Source: Spheniscus humboldti
Taxonomy: Eukaryota
Assembly: GCA_027474245.1 (NCBI GenBank)
Contig: CM049887.1
Coordinates: forward strand, 20,751,762 to 20,815,761
Direction: 5' to 3'
Length of the DNA: 64,000 nucleotides
In this document: piece after piece, positions 1,988 to 64,000 of the stretch
How the letters are laid out: each line of letters begins with the position of its first letter
Numbering within the stretch: the stretch's first letter is position 1
Notes under the pieces: generated by a model
Database searches by the model: none
Told to the model about the DNA's origin: nothing
What the model saw: only the letters and a program-made list of their open reading frames with translations
Program-made: the position numbers and the translations under genes

Positions 1988-2787
1988 TGAATTCACCCCA
2001 CTGCGTCGATGGTAACTTCCTTCTCCAAGTGGTAGAGGAGCCAACGAGGAGAGGTGCTATGCTGGACCTTGTTCTCACCAACAAGGAAGGGCTGGTGGGG
2101 AATGTGAAGCTCAAGGGCAGCCTGGGCTGCAGTGACCATGAAATGGTGGAGTTCAAGATGCTGAGGGCACCGAGGAGGGCGCACAGCAAGCTCACTACCC
2201 TGGCCTTCAGGAGAGCAGACTTTGGCCTCCTCAGGGATCTGCTTGGTAGAGTGCCATGGGACAAAGCCCTGGAGGGAAGAGGGGCCCAAGAAAGCTGGGT
2301 AATATTCAAGGATCACCTCCTCCAAGCTCAGGAGCGATGCATCCCAACAAAGAGGAAGTCAGGCAAAAATGCCAGGAGGCCTGCATGGATGAACAAGGAG
2401 CTCCTGGACAAACTCCAACACAAAAGGGAAGCCTACAGAGGGTGGAAGCAAGGACAGGTAGCCTGGGAGGAATACAGAGAAATTGTCCGAGCAGCCAGGG
2501 ATCAGGTTAGGAAAGCTAAAGCCCTGCTAGAATTACATCTGGCCAGGGACATCAAGGGCAACAAGAAAAGATTCTATAGGTACTCTGGGGATAAAAGGAA
2601 GACAAGGGAAAATGCAGGCACTCTCCGGAACAAAATGGGAGACCTGGTTACCTGGGATATGGAGAAGGCGGAGGTACTCAATGACTTTTTTGCCTCGGTC
2701 TTCACCGGCCAGTGCTTGAGCCTCACTGCCCAAGCTGCAGAAGGCAAAGGTGGGGACTGGGAGGATGAAGAGCCACGCACTGTGGGA
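1988..2787 (+). mobile_element. CR1 LINE, 5'-truncated older copy, part a. ORF2 endonuclease C-terminus/pre-RT region, interrupted by a nested CR1.
   Basis: ORF 1987-2796 reads ...[44 protein letters not shown]... This is colinear with the full CR1 ORF2 at 59374-61869 ([29 protein letters not shown]...). Confidence 0.85.
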
Positions 2788-3690
2788 GAATCATAGAATC
2801 ATTAAGGTTGGAAGAGACCTCCAAGATCATCGAGTCCAACCGTCAACCCAACACCACCATGTCCACTAAACATGTCCCTAAGCGCCTCATCCACATGTCT
2901 TCTGAATACCTCCAGGGATGGTGACTCAACCACCTCCCTGGGCAGCCTGTTCCAATGTTTAAGCACTCTTTCAGTAAAGAAATTTTTCCTCATGTCCAAT
3001 CTAAACCTCCCCTGGCACAACTTGAGGCCATTTCCTCTCGTCCTATCGCTTGTTACTTGGGAGAAGAGACCAACACCCACCTCGCTACAACCTCCTTTCA
3101 GGTAGTTGTAGAGAGCGATGAGGTCTCCCCTCAGCCTCCTTTTCTCCAGGCTAAACAACCCAAGTTCCCTCAGCCGCTCCTCATAAGACTTGTTCTCCAG
3201 ACCCCTCACCAGCCTCGTTGCCCTTCTCTGGACACGCTCCAGCACCTCGACATCCTTCTTGTAGTGAGGGGCCCAAAACTGAACACAGTATTCGAGGTGT
3301 GGCCTCACCAGTGCCGAGTACAGGGACACGATCACTTCCCTACTCCTGCTGGCCACACTGTTTCTGATACAGGCCAAGATGCCATTGGCTTTCTTGGCCG
3401 CCTGGGCACACTGCCGGCTCATGTTCAGCCGGCTGTCAACCAGCACCCCCAGGTCCTTTTCCGCTGGGCAGCCTTCCAGCCACTCTTCCCCAAGCCTGTA
3501 GCGCTGCATGGGGTTGTTGTGGCCGAAGTGCAGGACCGGGCACTTGGCCTTGTTGAACCTCATACAGTTGGCCTCGGCCCATCGATCCAGCCTGTCCAGG
3601 TCCCTCTGCAGAGCCTTCGTGCCATCATCACAATTGTTGAGCTCTACACAATTGAAACACTCCCTAACATACAGAAGATCAGGTTTGAGA
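2788..3690 (-). mobile_element. CR1 LINE, younger copy nested inside the older CR1. Internally deleted or chimeric: an endonuclease fragment is fused to the ORF2 C-terminus.
   Basis: The minus-strand ORF 2802-3563 reads ...[29 protein letters not shown]...[29 protein letters not shown]. The complement of the (ATTCTATG)n tail lies at about 2788-2802. The 5' end at 3618-3690 reads [24 protein letters not shown], joined directly to [13 protein letters not shown]. That removes about 1.8 kb relative to the copy at 59305. Confidence 0.8.
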
Positions 3691-5266
3691 CCATCTAAGG
3701 CACCTGAAGGTGCACAAGTCCGTGGGACCCGATGAGATCCATCCGTGGGTCCTGAAGGAACTGACGGATGAAGTTGCTAAGCCACTATCCATCGTATTTG
3801 AGAAGTTGTGGCAGTCCACTGAAGTTCCCACTGACTGGAAAAGGGGAAACATAACCCCCATTTTTAAAAAGGGAAAAAAGGAAGACCCGGGGAACTACAG
3901 GCCAGTCAGTCTCACCTCTGTGCCTGGGAAGATCATGGAACAGATCCTTCTGGAAGCTATGCTAAGGCACATGGAGGACAGGGAGGTGATTTGAGACAGC
4001 CAGCATGGCTTCACCAAGGGCAAGTCCTGCCTGACCAACCTTGTGGCCTTCTATGATGGAGTGACTACATCAGTGGACACAGGAAGGGCTACAGATGCCG
4101 TCTGTCTGAACCTCCGTAAGGCCTTTGACATGGTCCCCCCCAACATCCTTCTCTCTAAACTGGAGAGGTATGGATTTGATGGGTGGACTGTCCGGTGGGT
4201 GAGGAATTGGTTAGATGGTCGCATCCAGAGGGTAGTGGTCAACAGCTCAATGTCCAGATGGAGACTGGTGACGAGTGGCATCCCGCAGGGGTCTGTATTG
4301 GGACCGGTACTGTTTAATATCTTCATCAATGACATAGACAGTGGGATCGAGTGCACCCTCAGCAAGTTTGCAGATGACACCAAGCTGAGTGGTGCGGCCG
4401 ACACGCCAGAGGGACGGGATGCCAGCCAGAGGGCCCTGGACAAGCTCGAGAAGTGGACCCGTGTGAACCTCATGAGGCTTAACAAGGCCAAGGGCAAAGT
4501 CCTGCACCTGGGTCAGGGCAACCCCTGGTATCAATACAGGCTGGGGGGATGAAGGGATTGAGACCAACCCTGCCGAGAAGGACTTGGGGGTACTGGGGGA
4601 TGAAAAGCTGGACATGAGCCAGCAATGTGTGCTCACAGCCCAGAAGGCCAATCGTATCCTGGGCTGCATCAAAAGCAGCGTGGCCAGCAGGTCGAGGGAG
4701 GTGATTCTGCCCCTCTACTCTGCTCTGGTGAGACCCCACCTGGAGTACTGTGTCCAGCTCTGGAGCCCTCAGCATAAGAAAGACACGGACCTGTTGGACT
4801 AGGTTCAGAAGAGGGCCACGAAAATGATCAGGGGTCTGGAACACCTCTCCTATGAAGAAAGGCTGAGAGAGTTGGGGTTGTTCAGCCTGGAGAAGAGAAG
4901 CCTTTGGGGAGACCTTATTGCAGCCTCTCAGTACTTAAAGGGGGCTTATCAAAAAGATGGCAGCAGACTTTTTAGCAGGGCCTGTTGCGACAGCACAAGG
5001 GGGAATGGCTTTAAACTAAAGGGGGGTAGATTTAGACTAGATAGAAGGAAGAAATTTTTTACACTGAGGGTGGTGAAACACTGGCACAGGTTGCCCAGAG
5101 AGGTGGTGGATGCCCCATCCCTGGAAACATTCAAGGTCAGGTTGGACGGGGCTCTGAGCAACCTGATTTAGTTGAAAATGTCCCTGCTCATTGCAGGGGG
5201 AGTTGGACTAGGTGAACTTTGAAGGTCCTTTACAACCCAAACTATTCTATGATTCTATGATTCTGT
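3691..5266 (+). mobile_element. CR1 LINE, older copy, part b (RT domain to 3' UTR with (ATTCTRTG)n tail)
   Basis: ORFs 3710-3994, 4043-4552, 4584-4802 and 4824-5171 read [17 protein letters not shown]..., ...[15 protein letters not shown]..., ...[30 protein letters not shown]. The octamer tail attctatgattctatgattctgt sits at 5244-5266. The ORF is broken by stops and frameshifts. Confidence 0.85.
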
Positions 5267-6422: not shown

Positions 6423-6607
6423 GTATATTAGTGTGTTTATTTTCCCTGTTGTTTCATGCGGATGTACAAAAAGCCTGAAATAATTTATTTCTGAAGAATA
6501 GGAATAATTATATTTCTATGTATTTTTAAATAAAACTTCTGGAGAGTAAGGAATAACACTACACTATAACCATACGATACACTATAATCAGGAGTGTAAA
6601 AAAAGGG

Positions 6608-6961
6608 GGCTGAGGGGAGAGCTTATCGCTCTCTACAACTACCTGAAAGGAGGTTGTAGCGGAGTAGGTGTTGGTCTCTTCTCCCAAGTAACAAGCGATA
6701 GGATGAGAGGAAATGGCCTCAAGTTGCGCCAGGGGAGGTTTAGATTGGACATGAGGAAAAATTTCCTTACTGAAAGAGTGGTTAAACATTGGAACAGGCT
6801 GCCCAGGGAAGTGGTTGAGTCCCCATCCCTGGACGTATTTAAAAGACGTGTAGATGAGGCGCTCAGGGACATGGTTTAGTGGGCATGGTGGTGTTGGGTT
6901 GACGGTTGGACTCGATGATCTTGGAGGTCTTTTCCAACCTTAATGATTCTATGATTCTATG
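6608..6961 (+). mobile_element. CR1 LINE 3' fragment (ORF2 C-terminus, 3' UTR and (ATTCTATG)2 tail)
   Basis: Translation [16 protein letters not shown]...[30 protein letters not shown] matches the end of CR1 ORF2. The sequence ends ttaatgattctatgattctatg at 6961. Confidence 0.85.
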
Positions 6962-24035: not shown

Positions 24036-24988
24036 ATCCAACAGTGGGATCGAGTGCACCCTCAGCAAGTTTGCAGATGACACCAAGCTGAGTGGTGCAG
24101 CCGACACGCCAGAGGGACGGGATGCCAGCCAGAGGGACCTGGACAAGCTTGAGAAGTGGGCCCATGTGAACCTCATGAGGTTTAACAAGGCCAAGTGCAA
24201 GGTCCTGCACCTGGGTCAGGGCAACCCCTGGTATCAATACAGGCTGGGGGGATGAAGGGATTGAGAGCAGCCCTGCCAAGAAGGACTTGGGGGTACTGGG
24301 GGATGAAAAGCTGGACGTGAGCCAGCAATGTGCGCTCGCAGCCCAGAAGGCCAATCGTATCCTGGGCTGCATCAAAAGCAGCGTGGCCAGCAGGTCGAGG
24401 GAGGTGATTCTGCCCCTCTACTCTGCTCTGGTGAGACCCCACCTGGAGTACTGTGTCCAGCTCTGGAGCCCTCAGCATAAGAAAGACACGGACCTGTTGG
24501 AGCGAGTCCAGAAGAGGGCCACAAAAATCAGCAGGGGGCTGGAACACCTCTCCTATGAAGAGAGGTGGAAGATCTCTCCTATGAAGAAAGGCTGAGAGAG
24601 TTGGGGTTGTTCAGCCTGGAGAAGAGAAGCCTTCGGGGAAGACCTTATTGCAGCCTCTCAGTACTTAAAGAGGGCTTATCAAAAAGATGGCGGCAAACTT
24701 TTTAGCAGGACCTGTTGCAACAGGACAACGGGGAATGGCTTTAAACTAAAGGGCGGTAGATTTAGACTAGATAGAAGGAAGAAATTTTTTACGCTGAGGG
24801 TGGTGAAACACTGGCACAGGTTGCCCAGAGAGGTGGTGGATGCCCCATCCCTGGAAACATTCAAGGTCAGGTTGGACGGGGCTCTGAGCAACCTGATCTA
24901 GTTGAAGATGTCCCTGCCCATGGCAGGTGGGTTGGACTAGATGACCTTTAGAGGTCCCTTCCAACCCAAACTATTCTATGATTCTATG
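24036..24988 (+). mobile_element. CR1 LINE 3' fragment (RT C-terminus, 3' UTR and (ATTCTATG)2 tail), antisense within a CENPJ intron
   Basis: ORFs read [68 protein letters not shown]... and ...[30 protein letters not shown]. The tail attctatgattctatg lies at 24973-24988. A small internal tandem duplication is present near 24548-24590. Confidence 0.85.
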
Positions 24989-25030
24989 TTATCTATTTGA
25001 TAAAAACTGCCTAATAATGGTCTGAATTAC

Positions 25031-35758: not shown

Positions 35759-37625
35759 TATCATAGAATCATAGAATAGTTTGGGTTGGAAGGGACCTCT
35801 AAAGGTCATCTAGTCCAACCCACCTGCCATGGGCAGGGACATCTTCAACTAGATCAGGTTGCTCAGAACTCCGTCCAACCTGACCTTGAATGTTTCCAGG
35901 GACGAGGCATCCACCACCTCTCTGGGCAACCTGTGCCAGCGTTTCACCACCCTCAGCGTAAAACATTTCTTCCTTCTATCTAGTCTGAATCTACCACCCT
36001 TTAGTTTAAAGCCATTCCACGTTGTCCTGTCGCAACAGGCCCTGCTAAAAAGTCTGCTGCCATCTTTTTGATAACCCCCTTTAAGTACTGAGAGGCTGCA
36101 ATAAGGTCTCCCCAAAGGCTTCTCTTCTCCAGGCTGAACAACCCCAACTCTCTCAGCCTTTCTTCATAGGAGAGGTCTTCCATCCTCCTGATCATTTTCG
36201 TGGCCCTCTTCTGGACTCGCTCCAACAGGTCTGTGTCTTTCTTATGCTGAGGGCTCCAGAGCTGCATACAGTACTCCAGGTGGGGTCTCACCAGAGCAGA
36301 GCAGAGGGGCAGAATCACCTCCCTCGACCTGCTGGCCACGCTGCTTTTGATGCAGCCCAGGATACGATTGGCCTTCTGGGCTGCGAGCACACATTGCTGG
36401 CTCATGTCCAGCTTTTCATCCCCCAGTACTCCCAAGTCCTTCTCGGCAGGGCTGCTCTCAATCCCTTCATCCCCCAGCCTGCATTGATATTGGGGGTTGC
36501 CCTGACCCAGGTGCAGGACTTTGCCCTTGGCCTTGTTAAACCTCATGAGGTTCACATGGGCCCACTTCTCGAGCTTGTCCAGGGCCCTCTGGATGGCATC
36601 CCGTCCCTCTGGCGTGTCGACCGCACCACTCAGCTTGGTGTCATCTGCAAGCTCGCTGAGGGTGCACTTGATCCCACTGTCTATGTCCTTGATGAAGATA
36701 TTAAACAGTACCGGTCCCAATACGGACCCCTGCAGGACGCCACTCATCACCAGTCTCCATCTGGACATTGAGCTGTTGACCACTACCCTCTGGATGCGAC
36801 CATCTAACCAATTCCTCACCCACCGGACAGTCCACCCATCAAATCCACACCTCTCCAGTTTAGAGAGAAGGATGTTGTGGGGGACCGTGTCAAAGGCCTT
36901 ACGGAGGTCCAGATAGATGACATCTGTAGCCCTTCCCGTGCCCACTGATGTAGTCACTCCATCACAGAAGGCCACTAGGTTAGTCAGGCAGGACTTGCCC
37001 TTGGTGAAGCCATGCTGGCTGTCTCAAATCACCTCCCTGTCCTCCATGTGCCTTAGCATAGCTTCCAGGAGGATCTGTTCCATGATCTTCCCAGGCACAG
37101 AGGTGAGACTGACTGGCCTGTAGTTCCCCGGGTCTTCCTTTTTTCCCTTTTTAAAAATGGGGGTTATGTTTCCCCTTTTCCAGTCAGTGGGAACTTCAGT
37201 GGACTGCCACAACTTCTCAAATACGATGGGTAGTGGCTTAGCAACTTCATCCGCCAGTTCCTTCAGGACCTGCGCATGGATCTCATTGGGTCCCATGGAC
37301 TTGTGCACCTTCAGGTGCCTTAGATGGACTCAAACTTGATCTTCTCCCACAGTGGGTGGCTCTTCATTCTCCCAGTCCCCGCCTTTGCCTTCTGTGGCTT
37401 GGGCGGTGAGGCTCAAGCACTTGCCAGTGAAGACTGAGGCAAAAAAGTCATTGAGTACCTCCGCCTTCTCCATGTCCTGGGTAACCAGGTCTCCTGTTTT
37501 GTTCTGGGGACATTTTTTTTGTCCACGTTTTCCCTCATCTTCCTTTTATCCCCGACGTACCTATAGAATCTTTTCTTGTTGCCTTTGATGTCCCTGGCCA
37601 ACTGCCATTAGCGGTTTGGCTTGGA
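35759..37625 (-). mobile_element. CR1 LINE, 5'-truncated, about 1.9 kb, antisense in PARP4 intron 1
   Basis: The complement of the (ATTCTATG)n tail lies at 35761-35778. Minus-strand ORFs 36001-36975 ([69 protein letters not shown]..., RT), 37024-37308 ([25 protein letters not shown]...) and 37413-37601 ([14 protein letters not shown]). Confidence 0.85.
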
Positions 37626-53694: not shown

Positions 53695-53841
53695 TTCTTG
53701 CAGTGACTGTCCAGTGAGAATTTTACAAGTGTATAGGATTGGCAGAATAACTGAAACAGCAGAATTTCTGAGCAGTCTTGGAAACATTCGATCCTTATTC
53801 CATGCATCGTCTGTGCGCAACTTCATGGGAATTCTTTCCAG
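53695..53841 (+). CDS. PARP4: PARP4 coding exon, start of the PARP catalytic domain (NDCPVRILQVYRIGRITETAEFLSSLGNIRSLFHASSVRNFMGILS)
   Basis: Acceptor cttgcag at 53693-94 and donor AG|GTAAAA at 53841/42. Matches human SPVDVLQIFRVGRVNETTEFLSKLGNVRPLLHGSPVQNIVGILC. Confidence 0.85.
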
Positions 53842-55123
53842 GTAAAAATTTACATTCCCTTTTTTGTGACACTGAATCGGGCTTAACTGTATTCTTAAAT
53901 GTATTTTGACTTTTTTTTTTTTTAATGAAGCTCTTTTGCATTATATTTAACCTGATTTTTACTGTTAACATTTATATGAACATACATATACTTCTACAGA
54001 TCTCTGGAAGGAAAACCAATCTTTTGTAATGATAAATTTAATTATTTTCCAGGTAGATTAGACTTAAGATATCCAAGTTATTTGGATATGATGGTGAGGA
54101 CTGTGGTTTAAATCCAGATGAAAGATGACAAAATGGAGAGAGTAGGAGAGTAATGGCTGTGTGGAAAATTTATTCTGTTTTAGGAAAGAATTGCATTGAC
54201 AATGTCCTCCTTCCACTTCTATACATTATTTCCCCACAACTACTGTATTTGACATATTTTTAGATTATCATAATTTCCTGGAATAACAGAATATCTAGTT
54301 CTATGACTGAATACCATGGATTCACTCAGGCATGGTAATAATGCTAAAATAATATAACTTCTAGTAGCCTGACATATTTAAATCCTCATCATAGCATGTA
54401 TGCAATGAATACCAACCACTGAAAATTTAAGGATATTTTAAAAAAACATATCTGATACATAACACGATCAGAATGAAAGTACCTCAAAAGTCATATTAGC
54501 ATTCTGTTTTCCTTATACTGCAGATTTTAATTGTAAGTTACAAAACTGTTGAACTTATTTAAATATCGTACATTCTTTATATATAAAATGTTTTCTGTGG
54601 GCATCAATCGGTAGTAAATCAAATGTCTCATAAACAGTGTAAGGATGGTATCTCTACACTTAATAGGTTTGCAAACCAAACATTGGAAAAGTTTCCAAGT
54701 ATCCATTCCACAGCATTCTACCTTTAAAACTCATACTTTCTTTTTCTTAGCTACAAAAATTTCATACAGTTTTTTGAAATTGAATACAGCACAGTTGCTA
54801 GAAATGTAGAACTACTCATCTAATAACCAAAAAATTATTTTGAATGTTTGGCAATTAATCTGGAAAACACATTGTTTTTCTGCTAAATGAAGAAAAGCTA
54901 AGTCTTCATTGCTTATGTAATCAGTGTCTTGGTGATTAATATGACTGGGATTTTTTTTTTTATGAATAGACTTTATTTTCCTTGCGTGTCTATGGATGGT
55001 TTCTGTAAAGTGTATTTTGTTTTAATCCTCCGTGGTTCGTAATTGCACCATGTGTATGAGCCTACATGCTATATGCAAAAGTATTTTGTACTTTATTCAT
55101 TGTGTGACCTTCTTTTTCTCTAG

Positions 55124-56512: not shown

Positions 56513-57042
56513 TGAAGTAAGAAATGTTTTCTGTTTATATAGTGACTTGCTTCCAGAATTTCCTAAATACTTCTCAGAACCCTTTTTAGAGTACTTGTAT
56601 GAAGATAACATAATAAAAAATAATTTTTAGTTTATTTGCAGATGTTACCGAACTAGTGATTACCATGTGGCATCTGTGTAGCATCTGTTTAACAGATTTC
56701 CTATAGGCATAATTACCAACAGCAGTTGCAACTCTTCCTGTCACAGTGTGTTTCAAGAGAAGCACAGGAAGCACTTTTGCATAAAACATCAGATGGTCTT
56801 TAAATAATACAAATGCAAGGTTCTAAACAAAGACCTTGTAAGACCTTAAAGAACTATCATGAACTCATGATCCCTTAGACAGATGGCAACACAAGTATTC
56901 ATAACAGAAACTGAGTGTTACTTTTGTGTTGTGAATTGCATAAACAAACGTGGGCCATTGATATAGGATTAGATTCAATCATCTTTCCCAAATGTATATT
57001 TCAAAAAATATCTTTTTAATCTTCCGTAAACTCTTTGTTTAG

Positions 57043-57167
57043 GCTATGCATTACCAAATGCAAATCTTTCGAATCCTGTAAAAACTGGTCTTCAGGACAG
57101 ATTGGGAAATCTTGTCCCTCTGGGAGGTGTTTATATCAAGGCAAGGATAATAGACTTTGTAGCACAG
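57043..57167 (+). CDS. PARP4: PARP4 coding exon (RYALPNANLSNPVKTGLQDRLGNLVPLGGVYIKARIIDFVAQ)
   Basis: Acceptor tttgtttag at 57041-42 and donor CAG|GTAGAG at 57167/68. Matches human YQLPDAKTSSSTKAGLQDASGNLVPLEDVHIKGRIIDTVAQ. Confidence 0.85.
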
Positions 57168-58923
57168 GTAGAGTATGCTATTTATTGTCCTTTTCTGTAA
57201 CTCATCCCTGAAAAATTAATCTATTTATTAAATAGTGTTTTAGTCAAAATGCTGTTTAGTGTTTAGTTAATTGCAAAAAAAAAAAAAAGGCAATTCAATC
57301 TCTAAATGAAGGAAAGTCCTGAAACTGAGTGGAAACAGTTTTTATTCTTAGAGATGTATAGTCAAACAAATGCCAAAAGCTCTTTGGACAGTGAAAGGCT
57401 TGGCTTTATTTTTAAGTCTGTTTTCTGCCTATGTGTAATCAAGTCACCATTGTAGAGAAAGTTTCTGCAGTAGTGTACGCATTCTGTTCCCTTTAAAAGA
57501 CCTTTTTGGCCATCTGTTTGCCAGCTGAATTATAAACCAGTGAGAAATACCTAGGATGATTAAAGGTTTATGGAAATGTATTTGTGTTTTGTTTTTGACT
57601 TTGGTTAGACAACCTAAATTAGCTGTTACAAGTAAAATATCAATCAATGCAAAAAAGATCTTGCTATTCTAACCTGAAAATTAGCTAATAAAAGTTAGCT
57701 AAGCAGGCTAAAATAAGGGCCCACCTTGGTTTTTAGTACATATTGCCCTAAGAACACATTCTGTCAAGTCACAGGTCTTTTCCAATCCTGGGGCATAAGT
57801 CCGCAATCTCCTCCCCCTTCAACTGCATCCTGCCTGAAGCAGTCGATGATGCTAAAGCTATGGTTTTACAGAGTTCTGTCACATGTGTGTCTCTTCACAA
57901 GAGTCTGTATTCAGGGGTTTCCAGTGTAGCTTCATAAAAGTAAATAATGTTTTTTATATGTTGTTGCTAAAGCCTTAAAAAAGAAAGCAGGGGAAAACAG
58001 GAGAGAAAAGGATTTGAAAGAATTGTCTGCAAATGAGCCTGTGCTTAAACTATTCTGACACTCACAACTGTTGTCTGATCAGTCTGATTCCTTTGAACAA
58101 CTGTTCTTCTCATGAGGGATTCATGGGGGGGTTTTTTGTTTGTTTTTCATTTTGGTTTTGTTTCATTTTTGTCTAGTTTCCTATGGAATGAATTGCATCC
58201 AGTGGCATCTGTTCTGTGACCCAGTCCATCAAAGCAGAAAACAGTCTATAAGGCTGAGGTACAGAGCATAAACCAGAAATGATCAGATGGCAAGGGACAA
58301 TAAGAATGGCAGCAAAGGGGAATAAGGAATTGCTAGAGTTTTGACACACGGGAAGTAAACAGAAGAACAGATGTGAGAAGAAAGTCAGATGCAGTCTGCC
58401 ACCTCAGAGACAGAAATTCTGTCATTAGAAGATGGATACCATACATAGAGAAGTAACAGGCTTTTCCAAACATCCCTTTTAGTATATCGTAAAAATAGAC
58501 CGATTTTTTGTGGAGGTTTACTCTTCCTTCTTCTTTAGTCCTTACTGAACTTTAAACTATTATAGACATATTGCAGTGGTGACTTCTTTTTGTAGGCAAT
58601 AGCTTGACAGCTCCAGCTCTGACAGTATATCAGATAACCTTTAGAAGGTCATGGTTTAGTCGTCTTCTGGAAGAGATGTGATTAATGATTTAGAGATTAA
58701 ATGTTCTACAGCTCCTTGCATGTTTCTGGAGATACCTATCTGTTATTGTAACATTCCATTGTAAGGAATGTTATACTTTCATTTCTAAGGTACAAATAGA
58801 AGTTCCAGTTGTGGCATGCCTATTGACGTTTTGTGGTGCAAAGCAGTTATGCTGTTACACTTAAAGTATTGATGTTTTAATCACATTTTAACATTACAGT
58901 TATGCAAAAAATATTCATTTCAG

Positions 58924-59055
58924 GTAGTAATGTTTCAGACCTACACCAATCAAAACAATAAACCAATTGAAGCTAAATATGTCTTTCCTTTGGATGATAA
59001 AGCTGCTGTTTGTGGATTTGAAGCTTTTATCAATGGAAAACATGTCATTGGAGAG
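58924..59055 (+). CDS. PARP4: PARP4 coding exon, VIT domain start (VVMFQTYTNQNNKPIEAKYVFPLDDKAAVCGFEAFINGKHVIGE)
   Basis: Acceptor tcatttcag at 58922-23 and donor GAG|GTAAAA at 59055/56. Matches human VIVFQTYTNKSHVPIEAKYIFPLDDKAAVCGFEAFINGKHIVGE. Confidence 0.9.
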
Positions 59056-59278
59056 GTAAAATGTTATTGTACTTTGCCTTTGATGTAGCTCCTTCAATCT
59101 CAAGATCTGAAAGCACTTAATTAATAATGAAGATGTGAACACTAATTTTGATTTCTTTCATGTCCTTTGTTGTTGCCACTTGACTGGATTTCAAGGTAGT
59201 CATGTTATTTAAGAGAATATTGGTTAAGTTTTCTGTCTATAGAGATGAAATTACTTACTTTGGAACAGTCTTTCATAG

Positions 59279-59304
59279 GTTAAAGAAAAGAAACAAGCAC
59301 AATC
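59279..59304 (+). CDS. PARP4: PARP4 26-nt micro-exon (VKEKKQAQS, last codon split). Its donor GTTGAG lies at the first bases of the CR1 insertion.
   Basis: Acceptor ttcatag at 59277-78. The frame continues human IKEKEEAQQ. The only join that preserves colinearity with human ...AQQEYLEAVTQGHGAYLMSQDAP is 59304|61953 (TC|G = S). Confidence 0.65.
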
Positions 59305-61950
59305 GTTGAGTGTTTCGATTGTATAGAGCTCAACGATTGTGATGATGATACGGTCGAGTGTTTATGGGTAAGGATGAGGGGGAAGGCCAACGAGGCAGAT
59401 ATCCTGCTGGGAGTCTGTTATAGACCACCCAACCAGGAGGAAGGGGCGGATGAAGCGTTCTACAAGCGGCTGGCAGAAGTCTCTCGATCGCTAGCCCTTG
59501 TTCTCGTGGGGGACTTCAACTTCCCAGACATCTGCTGGAAATACAACATGGCAGAGAGGAAGCAGTCTAGGAGGTTCCTGGAGTGTGTGGAAGACAACTT
59601 CCTGACGCAGCTGGTAAGGGAGCCTACCAGGGGAGGTGCCTCGCTTGACCTGCTGTTTACAAACAGAGAAGGACTGGTGGGAGACGTGGTGGTCGGAGGC
59701 CGTCTTGGGCTTAGCGACCATGAAATGGTAGAATTCTCGATTCTCAGTGAAGTAAAGAGGGGGGGCAGCAAAACTGCAACCATGGACTTCCGGAGGGCGG
59801 ACTTTGGCCTGTTCAGGACGCTGGTTGAGAGAGTCCTTTGGGAGACGGTCCTGAAGGGCAAAGGGGTCCAGGAAGGCTGGACGATCTTCAAGAAGGAAGT
59901 CTTAAAGGCGCAGGAGCAGGCTGTCCCTGTATGCCGTAAAAAGAACGGGTGGGGAAGGCGACCGGCCTGGCTGAACGGGGAGCTTTTGCAGGGACTCAGG
60001 AAAAAAAGGAGAGTTTACCGCTTGTGGAAGAAGGGGCAGGCGACCCAAGGAGAGTACAGGGATCTCGTTAGGTCGTGCAGAGAGGAAATGAGAAAGGCAA
60101 AAGCCCAGCTGGAACGCAATCTGGCCGCTGTCGTTAAAGACAACAAAAAAAGTTTTTACAAATATATTAATGACAAGAAGAGAGCCAAGGAGACTCTCCA
60201 TCCTTTATTGGATGCGGGGGGGAACATTGTCACCGAGGATAAGGAAAAGGCTGAGGTACTCAATGCCTTCTTTGCCTCAGTCTTTAACAGCCAGACCGGT
60301 TATCCTCAGGGTACTCGGCCTCCCGAGCTGGAAGACAGGGATGGCAAGCAGGATGAACCCCCCATAATCCAAGAGGAAGCAGTCAACGACCTGCTACGCC
60401 ACCTGGATGCTCACAAGTCTATGGGGCCGGATGGGATCCACCCGAGAGTGCTGAGGGAGCTGGCGGAGGAGCTCGCCAAGCCACTCTCCATCATTTATCA
60501 GCAGTCCTGGTTAACGGGGGAGGTCCCGGACGACTGGAGGCTTGCCAATGTGACGCCCATCTACAAGAAGGGCCGGAAGGAGGATCCGGGGAACTACAGG
60601 CCTGTCAGCTTGACCTCGGTGCCGGGGAAGATTATGGAGCGGTTCATCTTGAGGGCGCTCACAAGGCATGAGCGGGACAACCAGGGGATCAGGCCCAGCC
60701 AGCACGGGTTCACGAGAGGCAGGTCCTGCTTGACCAACCTGATCTCCTTCTATGACCAGGTGACCCGCCTAGTGGATGAGGGAAAGGCTGTGGATGTGGT
60801 CTACCTGGACTTCAGTAAGGCCTTTGACACCGTCTCCCACAGCATTCTCCTGGAGAAGCTGGCGGCTCACGGCTTAGACAGGTGGACTCTGCGCTGGGTC
60901 AAAAACTGGCTGGACGGCCGGGCCCAGAGAGTTGTGGTGAATGGAGTGAAATCCAGTTGGCGGCCGGTCACGAGCGGTGTTCCACAGGGCTCAGTTTTGG
61001 GGCCGGTCTTGTTCAATATCTTTATCAATGATCTGGATGAGGGGATTGAGTGCACCCTCAGCAAGTTTGCAGACGACACCAAGTTGGGCGGGAGTGTTGA
61101 TCTGCTCGAGGGTAGGAAGGCTCTGCAGAGGGACCTGGACAGGCTGGATCGATGGGCCGAGGCCAACTGTATGAGGTTCAACAAGGCCAAGTGCCGGGTC
61201 CTGCACTTTGGCCACAACAACCCCATGCAGCGCTACAGGCTTGGGGAAGAGTGGCTGGAAAGCTGCCTGGCAGAAAAGGACCTGGGGGTGTTGGTCGACA
61301 GCCGGCTGAACATGAGCCGGCAGTGTGCCCAGGCGGCCAAGAAGGCCAATGGCATTCTGGCCTGTATCAGAAACAGTGTGGCCAGCAGGAGTAGGGAAGT
61401 GATCGTGCCCCTGTACTCGGCACTGGTGAGGCCGCACCTCGAATACTGTGTTCAGTTTTGGGCCCCTCACTACAAGAAGGACATCGAGGTGCTGGAGCGT
61501 GTCCAGAGAAGGGCAACGAGGCTGGTGAAGGGTCTAGAGAACAAGTCTTACGAAGAGCGGCTGAGGGAACTGGGGTTGTTTAGTCTGGAGAAAAGGAGGT
61601 TGAGGGGAGACCTCATCGCTCTCTACAACTACCTGAAAGGAGGTTGTAGCGAGGTGGGTGTTGGTCTCTTCTCCCAGGTAACAAGCGATAGGACGAGAGG
61701 CAATGGCCTCAAGTTGCGCCAGGGGAGGTTTAGATTGGACGTGAGGAAAAATTTCTTTACGGAGAGAGTGGTTAAACATTGGAACAGGCTGCCCAGGGTA
61801 GTGGTGGAGTCACCATCCCTGGAGGTATTTAAAAGACGTGTTGATGAGGCGCTTAGGGACATGGTTTAGTGGGCATGGGGTTGTTGGGTTGACGGTTGGA
61901 CTCGATGATCTTAGAGGTCTTTTCCAACCTTAATGATTCTATGATTCTAT
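59305..61950 (+). mobile_element. CR1 LINE, 5'-truncated within the endonuclease domain, 2.65 kb, with an uninterrupted ORF2 remnant. It exactly fills a PARP4 intron.
   Basis: The 5' end ([44 protein letters not shown]...) matches the CR1 endonuclease region and the inner nested copy at 3618-3690. The RT motifs [24 protein letters not shown] and FADDTKL are present. The ORF ends ...[30 protein letters not shown]. The 3' UTR ends ttaatgattctatgattctatag at 61950. Confidence 0.9.
59374..61869 (+). CDS. CR1 ORF2 remnant (C-terminal endonuclease plus complete reverse transcriptase), 831-aa intact ORF
   Basis: A six-frame ORF of 2,496 nt with no stop. The frame is in fact open from 59305. Starts [36 protein letters not shown]...[16 protein letters not shown] (APE-type endonuclease C-terminus), then continues through the RT domain. 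An ORF this long in a CR1 copy implies a recent insertion. Confidence 0.85.
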
Positions 61951-61952
61951 AG

Positions 61953-62013
61953 GGAATATCGGAAAGCTATCAGTCAGGGTGATGGAGCTTATCTAATGGA
62001 CCAGGATGCACCG
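61953..62013 (+). CDS. PARP4: PARP4 coding exon, VIT domain (SEYRKAISQGDGAYLMDQDAP), starting immediately after the CR1 3' microsatellite
   Basis: The AG acceptor at 61951-52 is the last two bases of the CR1 tail (gattctatAG). Donor CCG|GTATGT at 62013/14. Matches human QEYLEAVTQGHGAYLMSQDAP. Confidence 0.8.
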
Positions 62014-62489
62014 GTATGTTGAATATTGTGGTTTAGTACCTACTTGAAAATTTTGCAGTTGTCCAATTACAGATTCTTTGCTGAATCATGTCTTTGTTAG
62101 GAAACTCCTTTTTACTCCTTTTTATTTTGACCATACATTTGATAATTTTTAAAAACAACTATTGTTTCTTCAAATATGTGCTATGGCTTCAGTAAAACAG
62201 CTATTTGTCTTTCAGGTGGTTTTCTTTTTTTTTTTTTTTGTAAAAGATTGATTTATTCAGTTACTATTGATCAGTTTTTGCCAGAAATTAAGGAATTATT
62301 GAAAGTTTGACATTTCATATCATAGTTCCATTTTTCCTTACACTTTATCAAAACCAAATAGTAGTTTCTGTGTTAGCGTTTGGTTTCAGTGTGCCTAAAC
62401 ACCAGTTAAATTATTGTTTTGGAAAACATAGGCTTTAATGATGTCACTAAAGCTAGTTTGTGGTTTTTCTGGTTTTGGGGTTTTTTTAG

Positions 62490-62654
62490 GATATTTTTGT
62501 AATAAGTGTTGGAAACTTACCTCCGAATTCTACAGTTGTGATCAAAATCACCTATATCACTGAACTGAGTTTTCAGCATGGTTGTATCACCTTTCATATG
62601 CCTGCTTCTGTGTCACCATGGCAACAGGATAAAGCCTTAAATGAAAACACGCAG
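62490..62654 (+). CDS. PARP4: PARP4 coding exon, VIT domain (DIFVISVGNLPPNSTVVIKITYITELSFQHGCITFHMPASVSPWQQDKALNENTQ)
   Basis: Acceptor ttttttag at 62488-89 and donor CAG|GTTTGT at 62654/55. Matches human DVFTVSVGNLPPKAKVLIKITYITELSILGTVGVFFMPATVAPWQQDKALNENLQ. Confidence 0.9.
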
Positions 62655-63494
62655 GTTTGTTAAAATACAATCTTAAAACAGCATCTTCTTATTTTGAAGC
62701 AAAAGTTCTGTGCCTAGGGGATTGTAGTTATACAAGAGGTTTCAGTAAGTTTATGATTGTTTTCCTTTTCATTTCTTCTCTTTTGTTAGAAGATAATTGT
62801 TTGTAACCATTCTTGTCATAAAGCAACATGAACACAAACTTAGGAACGCTGTGATTGGTAGAAAGCCTCTAACTGTCTCTGAGGATGTATTTGCTCCTGC
62901 AGGACGTAGAAAGTTGACTTGAATTGGCATATTAGATCTCATCTTTTGAGTGATCTGCTAGTTTTGTGCTGCTGTTCCTCCTTTGGCTTGCAAACACATT
63001 GTATTATCTCAATCATGAAACAGCAGCTGAGCATCTGCTGAACACTCTGCTATTATCCTTCTATGCTTCAGGGACAAGGTTGCCCATCTGTTTCTTTGGA
63101 TGCCCTTGATGGCTCCTGAATTCTCCAAGTGGAATGGGAGGTCAGCTCTGTGTTTAAATGCTGGCAAAGAACCAGAGATGGTCCTTGTGATCCTAGTCCC
63201 TGTGAGATACTCTATACCATATAGCGCTATTGTATGTCTGACGGTTCAACAATCACGCCTTCTACTCCATAGCTGTATTATACTGAGTTCTGAAGTTCAC
63301 TGTGTCATTGGGAGAGAAACATGCACACGTTCATCTGAATTTTAGCTACTATGATGCTCAGATTATGAGCTCTATGATTAAATGAAGTAGAGGCTTCCAT
63401 GCAATCCCAACTTAGTGATATAGTAAGAGAAAGATGCTCCAGGGTGATAAAAGTGTCAGGAATTACATACACTGAAGAGGCAGATGAAATATTG

Positions 63495-64000
63495 AAGAGG
63501 TAAACAAACTATTCTATAAGCAGCTGGGAGAAGTCTCACGATCACTAGCCCGTGTTCTCATGGGGGACTCCAACTTACCAGATGTCTGCTGGAAATACAA
63601 TACAGCGGAGAGGAAACAGTCTAGGAAGTTCCTGCAGTGTGTGGAAGATAACTTCCTGACACAGTTGGTGAGTGAGCCAACTAGGGAAGGTGCCCTGCTA
63701 GACCTGTTGTTTATGAACAGAGAAGGACTTGCGGGTGATGTGATGGTTGGAGGCCGTCTTGGGCATAGCAATCACGAAATGATAGAGTTTTTGATTCTTG
63801 GAGAAGTAAGGAGGGTGGTCAGCAGAAGTGCCACCTTGGACTTCCAGAGGGCAGACTTTGGCCTGTTTAGGAGCCTGGTTGACAGAGTCCCTTGGGAGGC
63901 AGTCCTGAAGGGCAAAGGAGTCCAGGAAGGCTGGACATTCTTCAAGAAGGAAATCTTAAAGGTGCAGGAGCAGGCCGTCCCTATGTGCCGAAAGATGAGC
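63495..64000 (+). mobile_element. CR1 LINE, 5'-truncated copy running off the window end, sense orientation in a PARP4 intron
   Basis: Reads ...[161 protein letters not shown]. This is colinear with 59440-59950 of the intact copy. Confidence 0.85.

Follow-up and report, generated by a model that had tools for sequence, protein, structure and literature searches.

The 64,000-nucleotide (nt) stretch of Spheniscus humboldti DNA analysed here (assembly GCA_027474245.1, contig CM049887.1, positions 20,751,762-20,815,761, forward strand; hereafter the window) carries on its plus strand the 5' half of a PARP4 orthologue, one of whose exons is split by a 5'-truncated CR1 retrotransposon (Table 1). 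In a tblastn comparison, residues 3-766 of human PARP4 were colinear with window positions 38914-62654, with 37-79% identity per exon; the human sequence served as a probe only, the evidence being the translations of the window. The assignment to PARP4 is based on colinear BRCT, PARP catalytic and VIT regions, and homologues of the exon open reading frames (ORFs) are annotated as VIT/VIT_2 and "poly [ADP-ribose] polymerase". All other PARP4 exons in the window (human residues 1-766) are open and flanked by AG and GT.

The disrupted exon is ancestrally 87 nt long. After the acceptor tttcatAG the window reads GTTAAAGAAAAGAAACAAGCACAATCGTTGAG..., and downstream of CR1 the sequence GGAATATCGG...GCACCG/GTATGT finishes the exon (a slash marks an exon-intron border). 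The outer limits given in the earlier note, 59279 and 62013, were correct; the former lies behind an AG acceptor and the latter before GTATGT.

The element between the two exon pieces is a 5'-truncated CR1 in sense orientation, and all the features of the CR1 clade that we looked for were found. The intact 831-amino-acid (aa) ORF noticed previously was confirmed as an ATG-initiated ORF, and its frame is open for 854 codons from 59305. Pfam analysis identified RVT_1 (E = 1.3e-36), whereas Exo_endo_phos and Exo_endo_phos_2 matched only profile positions 111-225 of 225, i.e. the C-terminal half of the apurinic/apyrimidinic (AP) endonuclease, which fits 5' truncation. ORF2 shows the order AP-type endonuclease, then reverse transcriptase (RT). 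At its 3' end the element terminates ...ccttaatgattctatgattcta, with the octamer microsatellite (ATTCTRTG)n (attctatg-attcta, 61936-61949) and no poly(A). The same octamer end is found in two copies that are 94-95% identical to it, at 2787-3618 (minus strand) and 6601-6960 (plus strand), whose canonical ends read ...gattctatgattctatg (6961) and ...gattctatgattct (2787, minus strand). The GC content of the insert is 55%, compared with 34-40% in the flanks. The third characteristic of the clade, 5' truncation with little or no target-site duplication, was checked against the empty site described below.

An exact match of the 52-aa ORF of the upstream exon, the one sequence listed in its look-up, led to a Logan contig from SRR9860179 (L003), which is 98% identical to the window over 56893-63539 and lacks the CR1. 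Position 2368 of L003 aligns to window positions 59301 and 61949 alike, and its exon reads ...AAACAAGCA CAT AGG GAA TAT CGG.... The alignment of the left exon piece breaks beyond 59301, and in the multiple alignment the two halves of the window (up to 59301 and from 61950) meet against L003 without gap or overlap. Defined by this empty site, the insert extends from 59302 to 61949 (2,648 nt, with a 1-nt "A" ambiguity) and interrupts a conserved histidine codon after its second base (GCA CA^T AGG). The insertion left the target complete, with a target-site duplication of 0-1 nt. At the 5' junction, the site of the first six bases of the insert reads tatGTTAGGGAGTGTTTC in another CR1 copy, and only GTT could be CR1, given a 3-nt deletion; the internally deleted minus-strand copy reads ctgtatGTTAGGGAGTGTTTCaattgt, so that secure CR1 homology in the focal copy starts at 59308 (GAGTGTTTCGATTGT), within endonuclease codons. 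The ATCGTT at 59302-59307 is either junction filler or CR1-derived GTT accompanied by a 3-nt deletion.

The features reported in the earlier note are therefore real, although its boundaries were 3 nt off and the origin of the terminal AG was mis-assigned. It had placed the element at 59305-61952, which gives the right length but not the right limits, and had described a 26-nt micro-exon at 59279-59304, of which the start holds and the true left remnant is 23 nt (59279-59301). The GT of its proposed donor, described there as the beginning of the CR1 endonuclease remnant, lies within this ATCGTT, ahead of the secure CR1 homology. The AG at 61951-61952, taken for the last AG of the CR1 tail, belongs to the CAT AGG codons of the exon, as the empty site demonstrates.

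To place the insertion among orthologues, we relied on the DNA of further contigs: L001 (SRR31021156) and L002 (ERR14244242), birds approximately 78-80% identical to the window; L004 (Logan ERR15285191), a bird approximately 84% identical; two further tetrapods (L005 and L006); and the mammal-like contigs L007-L009 and L013. The 87-nt exon is uninterrupted, with identical AG/.../GT borders, in all of these. Together with L003, this makes 10 orthologous loci, from a 98%-identical relative through mammals, in which the exon is continuous at the insertion point; as an intron, the CR1 locus thus shows no positional conservation. When the exon peptides were used in protein searches, all matches were short ORF calls from genomic contigs, each covering a single exon; several were traced back to DNA, and neither an avian full-length PARP4 nor an mRNA-derived protein was among them. 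The A-H-R/K-E-Y motif is conserved. The empty site and the continuity of the orthologous exon show that the CR1 landed in coding sequence, and did so recently; judging from these alignments, no intron existed at this codon before the CR1. In more distant taxa (proteins P0001-P0075) the upstream exon and the 87-nt exon lie within one uninterrupted ORF, which means that the GE/VK intron of all examined tetrapod loci is absent there.

The earlier note had proposed that the insertion is tolerated because the termini of the element supply GT...AG, so that it is spliced out as an intron with 59304 joined to 61953. We scored splice sites with a position weight matrix (PWM; MAG/GTRAGT for donors, a pyrimidine tract plus YAG for acceptors) and with ViennaRNA duplex energies against the 5' end of U1. 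Three properties expected of a U2-type intron were compared. GT...AG termini are present (59305-59306 and 61951-61952), and a polypyrimidine tract with YAG is provided by taatgattctatgattctatAG/G; the acceptor AG scored 3.6 bits, which ranks it at the 95th percentile when every AG of the window is considered (real acceptors, -1.9 to 10.1). This exonic AG, now placed behind the pyrimidine-rich CR1 tail, may plausibly form a new acceptor. The donor ATC/GTTGAG, in contrast, matches the consensus at GT only. Its score of -5.8 bits places it in the 6th percentile of the 3,638 GTs of the window (below 94% of them), compared with 2.4-12.5 bits for the 13 real PARP4 donors, and its U1 duplex energy is -3.5 kcal/mol, compared with -4.2 to -11.6 kcal/mol for real donors. 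It therefore resembles neither MAG/GTRAGT nor a site capable of ordinary U1 pairing. A strong cryptic donor within the CR1 (Table 1) falls in the range of the real ones; when paired with the acceptor at 61952, it generates a 150-nt, frame-preserving exon that includes insert sequence and still holds the in-frame TAG. Among the GTs that precede this stop codon only that at 59305 is in frame with 61952; the others (59310, 59312 and 59321) shift the frame and score -5.4 to -0.7, and were rejected.

The product of the proposed splice is a stop-free exon of 87 nt, but it is not the ancestral one. The interval 59305-61952 has the length of the insert and is displaced 3 nt to the right, so its excision keeps the filler ATC and drops the exonic TAG (CA[TAG]G becomes CA[ATC]G). 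Length is thereby restored, yet His-Arg (CAT AGG) is replaced by Gln-Ser (CAA TCG); the restoration of codon and colinearity claimed previously is correct as regards length and frame only. In a chance control, the same insert was placed at 1,818 PARP4 coding positions. An in-frame, stop-free GT..AG pair within 6 nt of both ends arose at 18% of the positions, and an exactly length-restoring pair at 7%. With a chance rate of 7-18%, colinearity is not strong evidence for an intron. The GT..AG "intron" is a coincidence shifted by 3 nt and not evidence of intron birth.

The age of the insertion was assessed by comparison with L003. Non-coding (intron) sequence differs from this contig at 69 of 3428 sites (2.0%) and the exons at 6 of 510 sites, two of the six differences being non-synonymous; one change in exons B and C was assigned to the shared branch. 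The lower divergence of the exons argues that PARP4 remained under constraint in this lineage until recently, and a long-standing relaxation of constraint in the lineage of the window is unsupported by these values. If only substitutions are considered, the 854-codon frame would stay free of stops with a probability of 0.43 for a divergence of 1%, 0.18 for 2% and 0.014 for 5%. The absence of the element from a relative diverged by 2.0%, combined with its open frame, indicates that the insertion is young; it may be lineage-specific or polymorphic.

Table 1. Features of the disrupted PARP4 exon and its surroundings (window coordinates)
Feature	Position	Strand	Evidence or remark
PARP4 VIT exon, ...GKHVIGE; donor GAG/GTAAAA at 59056	58924..59055	+	tblastn; ORF Pfam VIT/VIT_2; translation identical in L003
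Conserved intron GE/ to /VKEK, 223 nt, acceptor tttcatAG	59056..59278	+	same position in L001-L007 and L013
Left 23 nt of the ancestral 87-nt exon, GTT AAA GAA AAG AAA CAA GCA CA	59279..59301	+	base-for-base to L003 2346-2368
ATCGTT, putative filler of the insert 5' junction, holding the proposed donor GT 59305-59306	59302..59307	+	absent from the L003 empty site
5'-truncated CR1 body, sense: C-terminal half of endonuclease, RT, 3' untranslated region (UTR), microsatellite attctatg-attcta (61936-61949)	59308..61949	+	Pfam; alignment of copies
Stop codon TAG, in frame with PARP4, reached seven codons into the insert	59324..59326	+	read-through translation
Strong cryptic donor TGG/GTAAGG within the CR1	59368..59373	+	PWM 7.6 bits; U1 duplex -9.7 kcal/mol; range of real PARP4 donors
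Truncated CR1 ORF2, 831-aa ATG ORF, out of frame with PARP4	59374..61869	+	ORF call
Right 64 nt of the ancestral exon, T AGG GAA TAT ... GCA CCG; natural donor CCG/GTATGT	61950..62013	+	aligns to L003 2369-2432
Next PARP4 exon, DIFVISVGNLPP...NENTQ, intact	62490..62654	+	tblastn; orthologue alignment

We consider a recent exonic CR1 insertion that disrupts this PARP4 allele to be the best explanation of the locus, with a probability of about 80%. A dead-on-arrival, 5'-truncated copy of 2,648 nt retrotransposed recently, in sense orientation, into the 87-nt exon of the VIT domain. Two routes to loss of function can be envisaged. The left fragment could be spliced from the cryptic donor at 59368, or the insert retained, in which case the in-frame TAG would lead to truncation and nonsense-mediated decay; alternatively, the split exon could be skipped, with the in-frame loss of 29 conserved VIT residues. 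The most likely outcome predicted from the sequence is a null or exon-skipped allele. Such a lesion, fixed or polymorphic, could persist because PARP4 is dispensable. PARP4 knockout mice are viable, and this, together with the decayed PARP4 of L004 and a possible lesion in L003 (see below), makes a tolerated loss-of-function allele plausible.

Several points weigh against this explanation. The splicing outcome is a prediction from DNA, for which the scores came from a simple PWM of consensus frequencies and from U1 duplex energies; moreover, enhancers can compensate for a weak donor. The window ends before the 3' half of PARP4. No same-species match was obtained when the 831-aa CR1 ORF and the minus-strand window ORF 62772-62942 were looked up exactly, and the insertion may be fixed, polymorphic or heterozygous.

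As for the interpretation offered previously, a recent, lineage-specific insertion into a coding exon is borne out: the exon is in one piece in L003 and nine further loci, the element is absent from L003, and its 854-codon frame is still open. The proposed tolerance through self-supplied splice sites is not supported, as the AG is exonic, the donor scores -5.8 bits, the resulting codons are non-ancestral and similar pairs arise by chance at 7-18% of positions. The earlier note had also mentioned, as a fallback, a disrupting lesion in this haplotype, and it is this reading that is favoured here, given the weak donor, the cryptic donor at 59368 and the TAG at 59324-59326. The empty site and the continuous orthologous exons refute its alternative of a tiny intron that was already present, and no CR1-free intron at this codon, which it had suggested looking for, was present in any of the 10 loci.

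The opposite outcome, in which the whole CR1 is removed as a de novo GT-AG intron (59305-61952) and the resulting protein, of full length but with His-Arg changed to Gln-Ser, is functionally tolerated, appears very unlikely to us. GT and AG do stand at the right offsets, the product is stop-free and of ancestral length, the acceptor is good (95th percentile), mammal-like orthologues carry Gln where the His stands (L007, AQREY), and the remainder of PARP4 in the window is intact. Nevertheless, the donor is poor by both PWM score and U1 pairing, a far stronger one lies 63 nt downstream, a 26-nt micro-exon would require strong signals, the AG does not come from the element, and chance alone would yield such a pair in 7-18% of random placements. 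Surveys of transposable element (TE)-derived introns also report no introner gain in vertebrates, and introners seem mostly to be DNA transposons (PMC9860276, PMC11282704). It is accordingly most improbable that the CR1 is spliced out at 59304/61953, perhaps aided by an exonic enhancer, as a case of intron birth from a long interspersed element (LINE) in a vertebrate coding exon; in such an intron birth, one splice dinucleotide would come from the junction filler and the other from the exon.

Skipping of the whole split exon could also leave an in-frame PARP4 that lacks 29 VIT residues and is still functional enough to make the allele effectively neutral. The exon measures 87 nt and both neighbouring introns are in phase 0, so skipping preserves the frame, and it is a common response to large insertions in short exons. 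We regard this outcome as unlikely: the 29 residues include invariant or nearly invariant vertebrate positions (e.g. V44-K47, A50, E53, Y54, G61 and G63-Y65), and the acceptor at 59278 and the donor at 62014 are intact and, with the donor at 59368 and the acceptor at 61952, could define two exons. Neutral skipping is, moreover, a prediction of the same kind as the splicing outcome above. An assembly artefact, i.e. a CR1 read or contig misplaced in the exon, might be suspected because many similar copies (93-96% identity) occur in the window and the look-ups found no second assembly of the same species. The junctions, however, have exactly the structure that target-primed reverse transcription produces (the target directly adjoins the canonical microsatellite at the 3' end, and the truncated 5' end carries a 6-nt filler), no target base was lost or gained, and the focal copy is unique in the window, its nearest copies being just 94-95% identical; such an error is extremely improbable. 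Practically negligible is the filling of a tiny pre-existing intron by a CR1 with deletion of its flanks. Nothing was found in its favour, and it was rejected on account of the 10 continuous orthologous loci and the L003 empty site, against which the two halves of the window abut without gap or overlap.

Lesions or possible lesions of PARP4 were also observed in other contigs. The region of L004 orthologous to window positions 58924-62654 (L004 1513-2584) carries a decayed PARP4, with a TAA stop in the 87-nt exon (L004 1885-1887); in the next exon the AG acceptor is lost, and insertions of 1 nt and 6 nt are present. On the L004 branch, exons B and C accumulated 13 non-synonymous and four synonymous changes. 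By its sequence, this locus looks like an independent pseudogenisation of PARP4 or a decayed paralogous copy, and its decay is consistent with the dispensability of the gene. In L003, a single contig, the acceptor of the 87-nt exon reads CG instead of AG (L003 2344, corresponding to window 59277), and the nearly invariant last codon of this exon shows a Pro>Ser replacement (L003 2430, window 62011); these changes may be a further lesion of this exon, acquired independently, or an error of the contig. A literature search on PARP4 loss in birds found nothing relevant. Two further differences concern the PARP4 sequence of the window: the catalytic-domain motif at 53702-53842 reads LFHAS, compared with LLHGS in the human PARP4 probe (Gly>Ala beside the catalytic His), and a 57-nt intron stretch upstream of the VIT exon (57824-57880) is absent from L003.

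CR1 fragments with 93-96% mutual identity are located at 2787-3690 (minus strand), 3673-5261, 6601-6961, 24041-24991, 35759-37609 and 63512-64000. In the minus-strand copy at 2787-3690 an internal deletion fuses endonuclease codons to the C-terminal part of RT. The next PARP4 intron holds a second 5'-truncated CR1, which begins approximately 1.5 kb downstream of the focal copy. Taken together, these copies suggest recent CR1 activity in the genome.

The locus represents a clean, datable avian CR1 insertion in coding sequence, for which a close relative supplied the empty site. It can be used as a presence/absence marker, and it is evidence of very recent activity of this CR1 lineage. It also carries a warning for annotation, in that a homology-guided predictor would probably draw a false GT-AG intron here and present PARP4 as intact. 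Should the allele be fixed, it would signify a recent loss or impairment of PARP4 and, considered with the decayed PARP4 of L004, would point to the repeated loss of a vault component in birds. Only if precise removal of the insert from RNA proved true would the locus be relevant to the origin of new introns in vertebrates, which is an open question.

Compared with the avian CR1 family, the focal element is unusual only in its still-open 854-codon frame and its coding-exon landing site. It shares with other members an ORF2 with AP-endonuclease and RT, the (ATTCTRTG)n end of the 3' UTR, heavy 5' truncation, the presence of related copies nearby and the virtual lack of target-site duplication, 0-1 nt being typical of the family.

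Introners and other TE-derived introns have been described in Micromonas, Aureococcus, fungi, dinoflagellates and tunicates, where introners co-opt target sequence for one of the splice sites (PMC9860276, PMC11282704, PMC12130899). The CR1 locus resembles them in consisting of a TE in formerly continuous coding sequence, bounded by GT...AG, with one splice dinucleotide derived from the target. Introners, however, form multi-copy families of repeatedly spliced introns and are mostly short DNA transposons, whereas we observed a single 2.6-kb LINE copy with a non-functional-looking donor, whose splicing is conjectural. Instead of many near-identical copies coextensive with introns, the 64-kb window contains one exon-bounded copy, and its other CR1 copies sit within larger non-coding stretches or ordinary introns. 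In a survey of thousands of eukaryotic genomes, vertebrates were reported to show no pattern of introner gain (PMC9860276, PMC11282704).

Among known systems, the locus comes closest to exonic LINE loss-of-function alleles. Features in common are a 5'-truncated retrotransposon without long terminal repeats, inserted in sense orientation in a coding exon, a premature stop, new cryptic splice sites, and a restriction to one lineage or haplotype with absence from close relatives. Examples include de novo L1 insertions in exons of human F8, DMD and APC, as well as TE insertion alleles in domestic chickens. Compared with L1 alleles, the focal CR1 has a microsatellite tail and no poly(A), and a target-site duplication of 0-1 nt in place of the 7-20 nt typical of L1; the host gene, in this case, is the dispensable vault component PARP4. 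Since the locus departs from true introns in donor quality and positional conservation and lacks the multi-copy character of introners, the CR1 in PARP4 is an ordinary exonic LINE insertion allele.

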